Source of the DNA: Candidatus Cloacimonadota bacterium
GTDB taxonomy: Bacteria > Cloacimonadota > Cloacimonadia > JGIOTU-2
Assembly: GCA_049903315.1 (NCBI GenBank)
Contig: JBNGBT010000002.1
Span: forward strand, 160,001 to 224,000
Direction of reading: 5' to 3'
DNA: 64,000 nt
A model generated the notes under the pieces. The model did no database searches, had not been told where the DNA came from, and worked only from the letters and a program-made list of their open reading frames with translations. Position 1 is the stretch's first letter; each line of letters starts with the position of its first letter. Positions 15,901-62,506 of the stretch are shown in pieces. Both the position numbers and the translations under genes were made by a program.

Positions 15901-18015
15901 ATGCAACAAAAACACTATGACCTGGAAAATATCCGCAATATCGGGCTTATCGCTCATATTGATGCGGGAAAAACGACCGTTACAGAGCGGATCTTATTCT
16001 ATACAGGCATAGTGCACCAAATGGGAGAAGTACACGAAGGTACAGCAACAATGGATTGGATGGTTCAGGAAAAAGAACGCGGTATAACAATTACTTCCGC
16101 AGCAACTACTTGCTTCTGGAAAGATAATAGGATAAATATTATCGATACTCCGGGGCATGTTGATTTTACTGTTGAAGTGGAGCGTTCTCTCCGCGTGCTT
16201 GATGGTGCTGTGGTAATTTTCTGCGGTGTCGGAGGTGTGGAACCTCAATCTGAAACTGTCTGGCATCAAGCAGATCGATATCATGTTCCGAGAATTGCTT
16301 TCATCAACAAGCTGGATAGGATCGGAGCTGATTTTGATTATGCAGTGAAAACCATCCGAACAAAACTACAACCTAATGCAGTTCCTATACAACTTCCAAT
16401 CATGTATAATGATGAATTCATTGGCATTGTCAGTCTGGTTAATCAGAATGCATACATCTATGATAAAGATGATGAGGGTTTGGAATTTTCGACCGTACCC
16501 CTTGATGATGAAAGGATTTCTCCTGAATTGGTTGAAAATATTGCGGAAAGCAGAATCAAGCTCATTGAAAAATTGGCTGAATTCGATGAAGTTATTCTTC
16601 AAAAGTACATTGATGATGAAATCATAACCGAAAACGATATTGATGTATCATTACGGAAAGTAACATTGTCCTCAGAATTCGTACCGATCCTCTGTGGAGC
16701 TGCATTGAGAAATAGAGGAATTCAACCTTTGATTGATGCAATTGTAAAATATCTTCCTTCTCCAAAAGATGTTCCTGAGATCAATGCTATTGATCCAGTA
16801 ACAGGTGAGGAAATAAAGATCAAAGTTGATGAATCATTACCCTTCTCTTCACTCGCTTTCAAAATTCAAGTGAATCCCTATGTGGGTAAACTGACGTATC
16901 TTAGGGCATACTCCGGGAAAATCAATAAAGGTGATCATGTCCTGAATGTTAACTCTGGAAAAAAGGAAAGAATTACACGCATCATGCACATGCATGCGAA
17001 TAAATCTGTGAATGTAGACAGCATTTTTGCAGGGGAAATTTCAGCAGTAGCTGGTTTGAACGAAACAGTATCCGGAGACAGCATTACAGCAATTCAAAAT
17101 CCTGTATTGCTTGAACGCATCAATTTTGCTGATCCGGTTATGTCAGTTGCAATAGAACCGAAAACAAAAGCCGATCAGGAGAATCTTAAAGATACATTAC
17201 CTCGTCTTCTCGAAGAAGATCCCACGTATATTATTACTGAAGATAAAGATACCGGACAGACCCTCATCTATGGCATGGGGGAATTGCACCTGGATATCCT
17301 TGTTGATAGACTCAAACGTGAATTCAAGATAAACGTAAATGTAGGTAAGCCCAGGGTTAATTATAAAGAAACTATAGTGGATGAAGCTGATGGTATTGCA
17401 ACGCTCGATAGAAACATCGGTGCACACGGTCAATTTGCAGAAGTAAAATTGCATCTTGAGCCCTATCACAATGATTCTGAAGAAATTACAAAGAAAATAC
17501 TGATCGAAAATCATGCATCAGAAGAAGAGATTCCTAAAGGTTTTATCCAGGCTGTAGAAAACGGCATTATGGAATCTGCATTGAGTGGACCTCTCACCGG
17601 GAATAGGATGGAAAATATCAAAGTTCTTATATCGGGTGGTTCATTCAGTCCTATTGATTCGTCAGAAATTGCTTTCAAGATTGCCGCTTCAATGGCATTT
17701 TCAAAAGCGATTCAACATGCAAAATATGCATTGCTTGAACCCATTATGAACATCACGATCATCACGCCAGAAGAGTATATGGGCAATGTGATAAATGACC
17801 TTAACAGCCGTCGTGGCAAGATTTTAGAAGTTAAAGACAAAGACTCAATAAAAATATTAAGTGGCTTGGTTCCATTAAGTGAAACTTTTGGATATACGAC
17901 TACTCTCCGTTCAGCATCTCAAGGAAGAGCATCCTATTCAATGGAGTTCAAAGAGTATGAAATGGTTCCTGAAAATATTTCAAATCAAATTATAAACAAA
18001 ATGCGCGGTTATTAG
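15901..18015 (+). CDS. fusA: Elongation factor G family GTPase (str-operon copy, divergent domain IV)
   Basis: [40 protein letters not shown]; position after rpsG. Confidence 0.95.
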
Positions 18016-18027
18016 AATTGAGGAGAT

Positions 18028-18330
18028 ATGAATAAGATAAGAATCAAATTAAAAGCGTATGATCATTTTCTGTTGGATAAGTCCGTTGTGGAGATCATAA
18101 GAAACACAAAAGGAACAGGAGCGAAAATAGTCGGTCCTATTCCGCTGCCAACCAGACGCAGATTATACACGGTGTTGCGTTCACCCCATGTCGATAAGAA
18201 GTCTCGCGAGCAATTCGAAATGAAGATTTATAAGAGAATTATTGACATAGAAAACCCAACTCCAAAAACAACGGACGCGATCAAGAATTTGAACATACCT
18301 GCTGGTGTTCATATAGAAATCAAAACCTAA
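18028..18330 (+). CDS. rpsJ: 30S ribosomal protein S10
   Basis: [32 protein letters not shown]. Confidence 0.99.
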
Positions 18331-18363
18331 ACTATATTTAAATATAAATTTTTAGGAGTAAAA

Positions 18364-18993
18364 ATGTTAGGCTTAATTGGTAAAAAGATTGGAATGACTC
18401 GTTTATTCACAGAAAATGGCGACTCAGTTGCCGTGACTCTAATTGAAGCGGGTCCATGTACTGTTACCAGTCATAAAACCAACGAGAAAGATAATTATTG
18501 TGCACTTCAACTTGGATTTCAGGAAGTTCCTGAGAAAAAACTCACTAAACCTCTGGTGGGACATTTCAAGAAAAACAATGTCTCACTTTTCAAGATCATG
18601 AAAGAGTTTAGAGTAAATGAAGATGTGATGAATGATTACTCTCCTGGTGCAGAAATGAAAGTGAATATTTTCAAACCAAAAGATAAAATTCATGTGACTG
18701 GAATTTCAAAAGGAAAAGGATTTTCTGGTGTGATAAAACGCCATAATTACCATGGAAAAAGTGCTACACACGGTACTCACGAGAGTTTTCGTGGAACAGG
18801 TTCTGTGGGTATGTGTGCATCACCCTCCAAAATTCAACGTGGCAAAAAGATGCCCGGTCAATATGGTAATGGACAGGTAACTGTACGTAATCTCACTGTA
18901 TATAAGATCGATGAAGAAAGAAACCTCCTTATGGTACGAGGTGCTATTCCAGGTCATAGAAACAGTGTTGTAATGATTCAAAAAACTAAGTAA
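18364..18993 (+). CDS. rplC: 50S ribosomal protein L3
   Basis: GKKIGMT, SKGKGFSG, GKKMPGQYG. Confidence 0.98.
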   Translation: MLGLIGKKIGMTRLFTENGDSVAVTLIEAGPCTVTSHKTNEKDNYCALQLGFQEVPEKKLTKPLVGHFKKNNVSLFKIMKEFRVNEDVMNDYSPGAEMKVNIFKPKDKIHVTGISKGKGFSGVIKRHNYHGKSATHGTHESFRGTGSVGMCASPSKIQRGKKMPGQYGNGQVTVRNLTVYKIDEERNLLMVRGAIPGHRNSVVMIQKTK

Positions 18994-33898: not shown

Positions 33899-34245
33899 AT
33901 TGATTTAAGAATGAAGATTAAAGATAGATGATTTAAGATTTGTATAACGCGTTCAAGTGGGAGAAGTTACCTCTATATTCTTTAATAGCAGGAAGATTAA
34001 AATTTATAAATGATTATATCTTTGCGTTCTCTGCGTCTTTGCGATCTTTGCGAGAAAATATTTAGTGTGAAGAGATAGGTTCATCCCATTGATTGATTTA
34101 AGAATGAAGATTAACGATTGAAGATTTGAGATTTGTATAACACAATAACCGGAGAAGTTAACTCAATACATTTTAATAGTTCACAACAGAAATATACAAT
34201 TTCTTATATCTCTGTGAACTCTGTGCGCTCTGTGGTGTAACATTT
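33870..34245. repeat. Degenerate tandem duplication, ~193-nt unit
   Basis: GATTGATTTAAGAATGAAGATTAA identical at 33898 and 34091; shared downstream TTTGTATAAC, GGAGAAGTTA, TTTAATAG and TTATATC blocks. Confidence 0.8.
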
Positions 34246-49736: not shown

Positions 49737-51032
49737 TTACTCCTTATTGTCATCTGCTTTCACCACCCTGATTTGATCCCACTGCGTGGTAAAATGCGGT
49801 GATTTATGTGCTCGCTTCATCATCCATGGTTTTTTTATACCAGTTGCTGCGTAATGCAGAGTACTGCTGCCCCATTTCTTGTTTATATTGTCGATTATCT
49901 CCGTAAGCCGTTTGTTCCTGCTATGAAAGTATGATTCGGTAAAGAGATTCAATTGGTATTTATCCTGCTCGACAATGCCGCTTAACATAACTCCGGCTTT
50001 TTTGTAACGATATCCTTTCCGATAGATTCTTTTCAGATTTTCGTGTGCGTGTTTGATGAAATCCGCAGTACTGTCTGTCGCTTCCGGCAGTTCATACATA
50101 TAAGCATTTGAATATTGCGGTTCTTTTGGCTTGAATCTATTTGTCGCCACAAATACCTGAATGAAGGATGCAAGGCATTTCTGTCTTCTGAGTTTTTCTA
50201 AGGCAGTTGTAACATATGTCGCCACTGCTTCTTCCATTTCTTCAAGCGTCTCGACCGGACGCCCAAATGAGCGTGAACTTACAATCTCTTTTTTATGAGG
50301 AGCGACCTCTTCTAAATCGATGGAAGGGATACCTCGAAGTTCAAAAACAGTTGCAAGCCCCATGACAGTCATATTTTTCTTCACCCATTTATCTGGAGCA
50401 TATTTTAGATCATATGCAGTGTGAAAGTTATTGCGCTTCAAGAGCTTTTCGTATTGCCAGCCCACTCCCCAGATGTCTGACACATCTACCTTTCTCAGGA
50501 ATTCATCAATTTCATGTTCACTGAACGGGGTTATATCGAGCACTCCTTTATACTTCTTGCTCTTCTTTGCAAAACGGTTCGCTACTTTCGCCAGAGTTTT
50601 TGTTTCCGCAATACCAATAGTAACGGGAATGCCGGTCCAGTTCGTGACAGTATTTTTGATCTTCCATCCATACTCAGTGAGGTCTCTATCAGCAAAACCT
50701 GACAATCCGAGAAAAGCTTCATCGATTGAGTAAATCTCAAGGTCTGGACTGAATTGCTCAAGTGTTTGCATCACACGATGCGACATGTCGCCATAAAGAG
50801 CATAATTTGAAGAGAAAACATAAATATTATGTTTTTTAATAAGATACTCGGCTTCGAAGACAGGTTTGCCAAAAGGCATTCCAAACGCTTTTGCTTCGTT
50901 AGAACGAGCTACGACGCACCCGTCATTATTTGAGAGAACAATAATTGGTCTGCCCTCAAGGTCTGGTCTGAAGACTCGCTCGCAGGAAGCATAGAAATTA
51001 TTACAATCAACAAGTGCGACTATGTTTTTCAT
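49737..51032 (-). CDS. umuC: Y-family DNA polymerase V catalytic subunit
   Basis: VDCNNFYASCE, VLSNNDGC, YSIDEAF, C-terminal WMMKR..SPHFTT; start placed at MKNIVAL. Confidence 0.93.
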   Translation of the reverse strand: MKNIVALVDCNNFYASCERVFRPDLEGRPIIVLSNNDGCVVARSNEAKAFGMPFGKPVFEAEYLIKKHNIYVFSSNYALYGDMSHRVMQTLEQFSPDLEIYSIDEAFLGLSGFADRDLTEYGWKIKNTVTNWTGIPVTIGIAETKTLAKVANRFAKKSKKYKGVLDITPFSEHEIDEFLRKVDVSDIWGVGWQYEKLLKRNNFHTAYDLKYAPDKWVKKNMTVMGLATVFELRGIPSIDLEEVAPHKKEIVSSRSFGRPVETLEEMEEAVATYVTTALEKLRRQKCLASFIQVFVATNRFKPKEPQYSNAYMYELPEATDSTADFIKHAHENLKRIYRKGYRYKKAGVMLSGIVEQDKYQLNLFTESYFHSRNKRLTEIIDNINKKWGSSTLHYAATGIKKPWMMKRAHKSPHFTTQWDQIRVVKADDNKE

Positions 51033-51050
51033 ATTATAACAAAACAATTC

Positions 51051-51603
51051 AGAATAGCACGCAGATCCACGCAGATCGAGCAGATTTTCGCTGAAAAATT
51101 TTTCTTTTATATTTTTTAAGCATTTTTTTTATGTAGTATGATTCTACTTGATTTTATTTGAAAATATTTTTCTTCTTACTTCAGGTTTTTTCCCAAAGTT
51201 AAGAATGAGTCCAATTTCGTATTTTGTTGCCTTAAGATAGTTAATTATTTGAGTATCATCTTCTGGACTAAGAAATTTGTTAGCTTTTAATTCTATTAAA
51301 ATTTTATCTTCTACAACCAGATCTGCAAAATAGTCTCCAACCAACTTGTCCCGATAATATACTTTTATTGGTTTCTGTGATTCAACAGAGAAACCTTTTA
51401 ATTCCAATTCAAACTTGAGTGATTTTTCATATACTTTCTCTAAAAAGCCATATCCAAGTAGATTATACACTTTGAAGAAACAGTGAATAATATCATCTGT
51501 TAAATCAGAAAATTTATATTTCATCTATTTCATCCTTAGCATGTTTTTTATTTTCTTTATCAGCGCTTATCAGTATAATCAGTGTTCATCAGTGTCCCAT
51601 TCT
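51051..51603. mobile_element. Putative element: GxxExxY gene between 48-nt phased inverted arms
   Basis: Left arm 51051-51098 and reverse complement of right arm 51556-51603 align ungapped (31/48) with four CRCWGAT units in register; mobility is inferred. Confidence 0.6.
51144..51524 (-). CDS. GxxExxY protein (PD-(D/E)XK nuclease-like)
   Basis: 126 aa, GFLEKVY signature, ADLVVEDKILIELKA, QIINYLKAT..GLILNFG. Confidence 0.92.
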   Translation of the reverse strand: MKYKFSDLTDDIIHCFFKVYNLLGYGFLEKVYEKSLKFELELKGFSVESQKPIKVYYRDKLVGDYFADLVVEDKILIELKANKFLSPEDDTQIINYLKATKYEIGLILNFGKKPEVRRKIFSNKIK

Positions 51604-51605
51604 TT

Positions 51606-51747
51606 TTAATAGAAATCAGTTCCACGAAGATTAAGCAGATTCCCCTGATGGCGTATACAGATAAATATTTTATAATAAATTTTATTTATCATTTATTATT
51701 TTTTTAGTGTTCATCAGTTTGACCAGCGTTCATCTGCGTTCCATTCT
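51606..51747. repeat. Empty copy of the phased inverted-arm element
   Basis: Left arm 51606-51649 and right arm 51700-51747 align with the arms of 51051-51603; AT-rich filler between. Confidence 0.7.
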
Positions 51748-52217
51748 TATATCGGTTTGTGTATAACATAAGTAACCACGCCCCAGATGTGGAAATCCAT
51801 GTCATCAGTGATCTCGAGAGGTTTGAAATTGATATTGCTGGACTGCAGATAGAGTTTATCGTTTTGATGCCAGATCCTCTTCACGGTGAGTTCGCCATTC
51901 ACTGCTGCGATCACTATTTTTTGCTTTTCTGCTTGAACTGATCTGTCAACAATGAGTAAATCTCCGGAATGTATTGCAGCATCGATCATAGAATCACCTT
52001 CCACCCGGACAAAAAAAGTTGCTGCAGGATGCTTGATAAGGAATTTGTTCAAATCAAGTGTGGATTCGATATAGTCGCTTGCTGGAGAAGGGAATCCGGC
52101 TGTGATCTCCGATTTGTACATAGGAAGTTCGAGTTCTATGCCCTCTTCATAACTCATGATCTTCGCGATACCCTTTCCTCGTTTCAAGGGACGGATATTA
52201 TTATCTTTTTGCTTCAT
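51747..52217 (-). CDS. umuD: DNA polymerase V accessory subunit (S24 autopeptidase)
   Basis: TAGFPSPA cleavage site, HPAATFFVRVEGDSM, ELTVKR, WGVVT; start uncertain (52217 overlaps the yggS end). Confidence 0.92.
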   Translation of the reverse strand: MKQKDNNIRPLKRGKGIAKIMSYEEGIELELPMYKSEITAGFPSPASDYIESTLDLNKFLIKHPAATFFVRVEGDSMIDAAIHSGDLLIVDRSVQAEKQKIVIAAVNGELTVKRIWHQNDKLYLQSSNINFKPLEITDDMDFHIWGVVTYVIHKPI

Positions 52218-52881
52218 ATTTACACGCTCTTGCTCCAAATAATTTTGTGCCAATCCGTATGATATTCGCACCTTCTTCGATGGCAATTTTATAGGAATTG
52301 CTCATACCCATAGAAAGAAATTTCATTTCAATATTCGGAATGTCCAGCTTTGCAATATGATCGAAAATCTTCCGTGTTTCCACAAAATAGGAACGCGCAT
52401 CTTCAGGATCGCCGGTAAAAGGTCCCATAGTCATGAGTCCCATTATCTTTACGTGAGGAAGCAGTGCAATTTCTCTTATAAGTTGTTCAACATCTTCCGG
52501 CATCACGCCATTCTTCTGCGGTTCACGTCCGCTGTTTACCTCAATGAGGATAGACATAATTTTATTATTGAGCTCAGCATATTTATCAATTTTTCGTGCA
52601 AGTTTGAGGGTATCAACTGTCTCGATCATATCAAAAATTGGCACAACCTGTACAACTTTGTTACTTTGTAGATGTCCGATGAAATGCCACCGTGCTTTAT
52701 CACCAATTATTTCATGAACAGCAACTGCTTCCTGTACATAATTTTCACCAATTTTATTTATGCCTGCTTCTATTGCTTCAAGGATTTCCTCAGCAGTTCT
52801 CGTCTTGGCAGCAGCAACCAACTCGATGCCTTCAGGAATTTCGGAAAGTAAACGTTTAACATTCTCTGTTATTAAACTCAT
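52201..52881 (-). CDS. yggS: PLP homeostasis protein YggS/PROSC
   Basis: GENYVQE, WHFIGHLQSNK, GLMTM, LSMGMS, IRIGTKLFG. Confidence 0.95.
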   Translation of the reverse strand: MSLITENVKRLLSEIPEGIELVAAAKTRTAEEILEAIEAGINKIGENYVQEAVAVHEIIGDKARWHFIGHLQSNKVVQVVPIFDMIETVDTLKLARKIDKYAELNNKIMSILIEVNSGREPQKNGVMPEDVEQLIREIALLPHVKIMGLMTMGPFTGDPEDARSYFVETRKIFDHIAKLDIPNIEMKFLSMGMSNSYKIAIEEGANIIRIGTKLFGARACKYEAKR

Positions 52882-53027
52882 TATGTCCTTTCATAACTAA
52901 TCACACATTATGAACAACATTCATCTTGATGAACATTCCTTTGTCAACTCCTATCTCATTACATTGAATATCCAATATCCAGCAAGGAATGTTCAATGAT
53001 GAAGTATTTTTCAGGAAAATTACTTAA

Positions 53028-53076
53028 AAATCATCAATCTGAAATCAATAATCTTAAATCATAAATCTCCAATCTT
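53028..53076. repeat. 7-nt phased array (NAATCNN x7)
   Basis: AAATCAT CAATCTG AAATCAA TAATCTT AAATCAT AAATCTC CAATCTT. Confidence 0.8.
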
Positions 53077-62320: not shown

Positions 62321-62506
62321 TTAATAGGACGCTGATCCACGCAGATTGAACAGATTTTCGCAGATTAAGAATTTTATTTATTTTTTTCATTTTATTTTCT
62401 AAATCAGTGTTCACCCTGTGAAATAATCCCGATACATCGGGATTCCTGCTTTGCAGGATTTCGCGGGGTAAATCAGCATAATCTGTGTTCATCAGTGTTC
62501 TATTCT
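62321..62506. repeat. Empty copy of the phased inverted-arm element with a nested branched hairpin
   Basis: Left arm 62321-62368 is 39/48 identical to 51051-51098; right arm 62401-62506 interrupted by 62413-62469. Confidence 0.8.

Follow-up and report, generated by a model that had tools for sequence, protein, structure and literature searches.

The window analysed here is a 64,000-nt stretch of a Candidatus Cloacimonadota genome (contig JBNGBT010000002.1, positions 160,001 to 224,000), in which the minus-strand host genes umuD (51747..52286; Peptidase_S24, NCBIfam UmuD above cut-off) and umuC (49737..51032; Pfam IMS, IMS_C and DUF4113, NCBIfam UmuC above cut-off) are separated by a gap of 714 nt, with an SRAP gene, assigned from profile matches, downstream of the pair. 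The sole open reading frame within the gap is a GxxExxY gene of 126 residues (51144..51524, minus strand; PF13366, TIGR04256, structure model and conservation), which has a predicted PD-(D/E)XK fold and runs in the direction of the operon. On its downstream side lies an inward-reading arm consisting of an AATRG terminus and four CRCDGAT-type words (51051..51098, plus strand; sequence and repeat analysis), and on its upstream side an inverted arm (51556..51603, minus strand) that matches the first, without gaps, at 31 of 48 positions. Fourteen G/C positions match in this pair, compared with 12 in the best inverted 48-nt window from 200 Markov shuffles of the gap. The initial annotation had described these elements accurately, the arm that it called left being the downstream arm of a minus-strand gene. 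Its picture of a single gene boxed by two arms did not hold, since a further arm (51700..51747, minus strand) overlaps the umuD stop codon at its final base and matches the arm at 51051 at 34 of 48 positions, better than the arms of the gene-bearing pair match each other. The gap is therefore an array of two arm pairs: a gene-less one, which begins at the umuD stop codon with this outer arm and continues through an AT-rich spacer (51654..51699) to a decayed inner arm (51606..51653, plus strand; 28/48 to the 51051 arm; repeat family D6), and the gene-bearing one.

Removal of both units would leave 18 nt (51033..51050), as had been calculated. This remainder is probably what is left of an additional, decayed arm end, and not the original umuD–umuC spacer: it aligns by eye with a relic arm end in two congeners, G001 and G005, and in the outgroup G020 the umuD stop codon is followed directly by ATG, a spacing shorter than the remainder. 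No Rfam match at E values up to 1 was obtained between positions 50500 and 52500. Promoter and terminator scans gave signals at chance level only.

Elsewhere in the window, the genome census located a gene-less sister pair of arms with the same word class (62330..62497). By eye, a hairpin repeat resembling the NTS/SRM consensus is nested within it (62400–62470), and similar NTS/SRM-like hairpin repeats lie inside arm pairs in the umuD–umuC gap of G004 (L002); junction hot spots are common to several repeat types. Two solo arms of other word classes occur at 33990–34240, where the congener G007 has a gene-bearing unit of the umuDC-locus class. Another intergenic segment (52965–53074) consists of sequence that other contigs from the same metagenomes also contain, followed by a repeat with a 14-nt period.

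Arms in relatives and across the source genome

A umuC match was found in seven of ten congeners, and all seven have arms of the umuDC class at the junction, one of them cut by a contig end; the gaps measured in six range from 142 to 747 nt. Among these congeners the gene itself is also present at the junction only in G001, with 75% amino-acid identity, and there it occupies the first unit of the array, while in the source genome it occupies the second. Four more distant genomes have arm-free junctions with gaps of 6, 8, 8 and 27 nt, and in two others the gaps of 201 and 355 nt are filled by other sequence. Arms in all seven of these congeners, together with arm-free junctions in distant genomes, indicate that the arms arrived here near the base of the genus and that the array has changed since. 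The search for an empty site proposed in the initial annotation thus returned arm-free alleles in outgroups and a gene whose presence is polymorphic among congeners, while the proposed search for excision junctions gave none: in four Logan metagenome contig sets, which may derive from the same source as this DNA and whose contigs drop rare variants, the unit is intact and no skipping or excision joint was found. The copy at the umuDC locus appears to be old and fixed. The nearest named homologues of its protein, at 84% and 75% identity, come from Candidatus Cloacimonadota records.

Six GxxExxY genes, of different word classes, occur in the source genome, together with 45 arms of at least three words, compared with one in each of two shuffles. 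Thirteen arm pairs face inward and one outward, with none in the shuffles, and 43 of the 45 arms lie outside long open reading frames, these covering 75% of the genome. Phased words adjoin all six GxxExxY genes on at least one side, and on both sides in three by strict count. The genome also contains five matches to small GIY-YIG genes and four to Y1 genes; phased words are found beside only one of these nine and beside none of the four Y1 genes. Three of the GIY-YIG genes (C55:56385, C2:60186 and C44:129051) lie, by eye, between tRNA-like sequences and partial copies of their own ends. When 47 congener loci were compared with the source genome, many proved to be at junctions that are armless, empty-paired or of another class in the latter, and several congener GxxExxY genes are internally deleted.

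The GxxExxY protein and its words

GxxExxY genes are associated with arms well beyond this genus, the word class is matched to the protein clade, and the active site is intact and under selection. Around the 80 nearest homologue loci, which come from 12 named phyla (51 are from Bacteroidota and two from congeners), arms are present on both sides in 50, while control windows for this set contain any arms in 7 of 138 cases. A pooled set of 251 GxxExxY genes included 229 with enough flank for a motif-free search, which recovered inverted phased words at 177, compared with 4 of 178 distal control windows, as the initial annotation had anticipated for other members of the family; many of the genes negative in this search show variant words on inspection. 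The direct-orientation control (109 of 229) is uninformative, because the arrays contain both orientations. Left and right arms belong to the same word class in 127 of 134 classifiable units, against a shuffled mean of 45. On a quick tree of 198 rows, which omits 52 unclassified rows and one unusable row, the class changes 21 times compared with 91 after shuffling, and the clustering of class by clade is overstated in this comparison, as the tree was seeded by two queries and contains near-copies. A strict class-B pattern gave one match in five genomes.

Over the 251 loci, words are spaced 8–11 nt apart with a mode of 9 (129, 415, 274 and 55 cases for 8, 9, 10 and 11 nt). The term helically phased, used when the arms were first noticed, is therefore only approximate, and the mode speaks against strict 10.5-nt phasing. 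Often the gene is not enclosed by an arm pair but lies beside one or between two, and the arms closest to it point inward in 97 of 157 cases. Of 104 arrays, 91 are located where both neighbouring genes run in the same direction, against a background of 1584 of 2228; the median distances are 13 nt past a stop codon and 21 nt ahead of a start codon. Among members of the CACGAAA class, the left arm usually encodes the N-terminus of the protein, with an ATG beside the upstream stop as its start (7 of 8; L107, L108, L124, L130, L132 and others), an arrangement that is rare in the class of the umuDC locus (7 of 57).

What might this small protein do? The ORF at the umuDC locus matched PF13366 alone in Pfam (E 3e-39; 134 bits against a curated cut-off of 22) and TIGR04256 in NCBIfam-type models (E 9e-38; 129 bits against a cut-off of 35), a very large family that is described as being of unknown function and multiply transferred in the accessible portion of PMC3424549, and of which 13,876 clusters at 50% identity were matched. 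Its structure model (pLDDT 94) has a generic PD-(D/E)XK fold. Putative active-site residues E29, D68, E78-x-K80 and Q92-xxx-Y96 correspond to the four motifs that define RecB-like PD-(D/E)XK nucleases, as far as the available text of PMC2602864 sets them out. In the 251 sequences, E78 is conserved in 251, K80 in 250, Q92 in 249, D68 in 245 and Y96 in 244; E29 was demanded by the sequence filter of this set, and the other active-site residues were not. Values of dN/dS between 0.06 and 0.33 across GxxExxY genes indicate purifying selection. The best Foldseek match was the Cas4 protein SSO0001 (E 5.4e-4), with Hjc at E 4e-3 and no clear winner, and a second fold search likewise gave a generic PD-(D/E)XK match (best Z 8.4, many ties). 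Neither these fold searches nor the profile matches to the unit revealed a transposase or a recombinase fold, in agreement with the earlier statement that the unit has no DDE, HUH or tyrosine/serine recombinase; no solved structure matching the protein by sequence was found.

Natural two-domain fusions may bear on the arrangement in which the protein acts. Exactly one complete active site is present in 15 of 16 such fusions and two in none, which hints at a possible dimer that would cut a single strand. The fused domains are arranged head to tail, with one live and one dead site in either order (P0001–P0005, P0015, P0017, P0045, P0066, P0082, P0087, P0091, P0092, P0135, P0136 and P0145). One natural fused protein was modelled, without a control, as two like domains (pTM 0.78), and we do not count this model as evidence. 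A residue code for word class was not seen across independent clades.

Array turnover and its possible causes

Arrays change by whole units, units have been copied between unrelated loci, the gene varies in its position and arm-free alleles exist. Over 166 nt, a umuDC unit of G009 shares 94.6% identity with an unrelated locus of the same genome, compared with 66–89% for orthologous gaps. At one site, entire units distinguish G001 from G005, whose flanks are 94–95% alike; between G001 and G009, one difference is a deletion between same-sense words. Two and three head-to-tail copies of the gene occur at two sites in G026, with one junction in common. A G008 gene shows dS values of 0.57–0.63 to copies at a different site and of 1.29 to the same-site copy of G004, where the reference is a single host gene, umuC, at 0.86. 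Unit copying, whole-unit differences, same-sense deletions, tandem copies and the closeness of this G008 gene to different-site copies are marks of recombination between arms. The two G026 sites lie 7.6 kb apart (L183:9700-10600 and 17100-18700), and their tandem copies contain the same truncated-arm junction, a possible trace of a circle or concatemer.

Some arm words are interrupted, directly after CAC, by a hairpin-like insert of 29–30 nt. Of 21 pattern matches, 15 show it by eye and 11 pass a strict rejoin test. Examples are G000:C22:135966, C44:257579, C55:194355, C55:210974 and C69:60973, with further cases at L110, L126, L128, L133, L346, L355, L359, L367, L373 and L387; G001 carries a nested double insert of 60 nt at a place where the word is unbroken in G005. 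These inserts may mark a cut position or may be parasites of the arms.

We propose the following model, to which we assign a probability of about one half: the words serve as binding sites at or near which the protein nicks DNA, and host repair moves the arms together with the gene. An arm is a run of two to four seven-base words at 8- to 11-nt spacing, and inverted arm pairs, either empty or gene-bearing, build arrays at the junctions of co-directed genes. The protein would attach to its cognate words in DNA, either as a dimer or as a short oligomer, and nick a single strand in or close to an arm. Recombination by the host between arms could then expand, collapse and export units, moving the gene in and out, while new junctions would be seeded by rare illegitimate repair, with only extragenic landings surviving. 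A counterpoint to nicking is that recombination between repeats needs no nuclease. More tentatively, we speculate that this is a minimal form of mobile DNA, in which a RecB/Cas4-like protein of about 125 residues assembles on tandem words of its own, nicks one strand by way of the single active site in each dimer and thereby lets host repair mobilize its gene as well as arm pairs without a gene, possibly by way of circles or concatemers, and of which nature may hold many orthogonal word–enzyme pairs.

The protein could instead serve its host in the manner of Ssn and NTS, by cutting word-marked DNA such as incoming single strands and thereby tuning gene exchange or defence, with the spread of arms as a by-product. 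The purifying selection on the gene would fit such a role, as would homologues on only 8 of 72,556 plasmids and 0 of 50,697 phages and a layout that is the same as NTS-ssnA-NTS, as presented in the available part of PMC11893778. We nevertheless consider it rather unlikely, because copy numbers vary from 0 to 19 per genome, many copies are broken or internally deleted, the gene has been gained and lost within one genus, and there was no PADLOC match below E 0.01.

Would the data be better explained by a genuine transposon, the main idea of the initial annotation, with defined ends and a new chemistry by which the GxxExxY protein mobilizes the entire element, the empty pairs being MITE-like derivatives? 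Arm-free orthologous junctions, one of which (the C6 site) has a 16-nt direct repeat, and internally deleted genes argue for it, and the junction common to the tandem copies might have come from a circle. Outside the arms, high-scoring direct repeats occur in 8 of 125 arrays, compared with a null mean of 3.5 and maximum of 7.1; the mean score over the same arrays, however, equals the null (7.96 versus 7.78), with no general excess. Of five empty-site cases, in which the insertions are old, only the C6 site stands out and the other four fall inside the mismatched range. A general target-site duplication had been seen by eye at several empty sites and was not upheld against the null. In recent copies, the end of homology does not coincide with a fixed arm boundary, and the protein has no recombinase fold, which makes this explanation improbable. 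The insertion unit of the initial annotation is thus recurrent and polymorphic in presence, but the lack of a general direct repeat and the frequent position of the gene between or beside arm pairs speak against a discrete element with fixed ends.

A further reading, in our view quite improbable, makes the arms operators of the gene or passive passengers beside it and credits their spread to other enzymes, or simply to recombination and slippage during replication. Arms occurring independently of the gene had been named at the outset as speaking against a linked unit, and this is partly what we see: the gene was found in 87 of the 121 genomes of the phylum, and 10 of the 34 genomes without a gene match have at least 25 arm matches. 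Overall, pattern matches reach 333 in one genome. In the 16 loci inspected out of 30 fetched from gene-less genomes, arms were often solo or in mosaic repeats, arms lie in mosaic intergenic hot spots beside other repeat types, and the GIY-YIG and Y1 matches of the source genome would offer other enzymes. Against this stand the correlation of arm count with gene count (rho 0.48 over 121 genomes, in which kin are not independent) and the presence of the gene in all 15 genomes with at least five class-A terminal matches. A PF13366 re-search of five arm-rich, gene-less genomes gave nothing over the cut-off, and these are assemblies of 80–310 contigs; their arms may be relics, reflect assembly losses or have spread without the enzyme. 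An operator role, moreover, leaves the invariant active site and dozens of distant arms unexplained. In two gene-less genomes, arms were observed within tandem mosaic repeats with 7-mer runs (L294 and L304 in G104; L285 and L310 in G055).

An RNA-level process, in which the arms would pair in the operon transcript as the long stem suggested by the initial annotation and the protein would process or excise it, is very improbable and was set aside: it accords with the strong co-direction with host operons, the pairing of arms in the lowest-energy fold of the unit and a weakly shared fold in tRNA splicing endonucleases (Z 5.3–5.8), but the sense strand has no G·U bias (47 compatible versus 52 incompatible changes, p 0.69), the fold is weak (z -1.64, with 8 of 100 shuffles equally good), Rfam gave no match, and the protein motifs are those of RecB-like DNases in the accessible text of PMC2602864.

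Comparison with known systems

A literature search, with subscription journals and supplements outside its scope, returned no description of the pairing of GxxExxY genes with arms. Prokaryotic MITEs and their insertion sequences have inverted ends in common, whether the gene is present, internally deleted or absent. GxxExxY units likewise come in gene-bearing, internally deleted and empty forms with inverted ends, but they lack a DDE transposase and a fixed target duplication, their ends are degenerate runs of words, and the gene varies in its position within arrays. Homing enzymes cut the gene-less allele and carry no repeated arms. Free-standing homing endonuclease genes resemble the present system as small nucleases amid conserved genes that plausibly spread by cut-and-repair gene conversion, the difference being that the presumed target travels with the GxxExxY gene. 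In the available text on Beggiatoaceae and their 7-mer direct repeats (PMC4679880), the word nuclease does not occur.

REPIN and BIME elements share with the arms an organization as inverted doublets with a spacer, an extragenic and chromosomal location and a tendency to form tandem clusters, and in REPIN/RAYT systems, too, each repeat group is tied to its own enzyme clade, according to the accessible parts of PMC3116915 and PMC5581495. As described there, RAYT is an HUH (Y1) transposase that is typically single-copy, and REPs are palindromic. GxxExxY genes, unlike RAYTs, occur several to a genome and have no Y1 domain, and their arms show neither an internal hairpin nor a pairing bias.

Among working analogues, Ssn and its NTS/SRM repeats come closest and REPIN/RAYT next; the GxxExxY enzyme differs in kind from the enzymes of both. 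Ssn nucleases are GIY-YIG proteins that recognise a hairpin of 20–50 nt in single-stranded DNA. In the portion of PMC11893778 available to us, that system, like the present one, has a small single-domain nuclease gene with its own repeats on both sides, many gene-less repeat copies genome-wide, diverging enzyme–repeat pairs and no transposase. GxxExxY proteins, putative nucleases, differ in having a predicted PD-(D/E)XK fold and no GIY-YIG domain; the arm differs from the repeats described there in being a non-palindromic run of seven-base words. The repeat system is apparently undescribed and appears to belong to no described family, though it is of the repeat-plus-small-enzyme kind. With the arms as the predicted DNA target of each clade, the question of the family's function becomes directly testable, and the system could yield very small sequence-specific nickases. 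If the proteins cut their own words, an abundant class of intergenic repeats would be accounted for, and REPIN/RAYT and Ssn/SRM would be joined by a third system that pairs repeats with a small enzyme, built on an unrelated fold.
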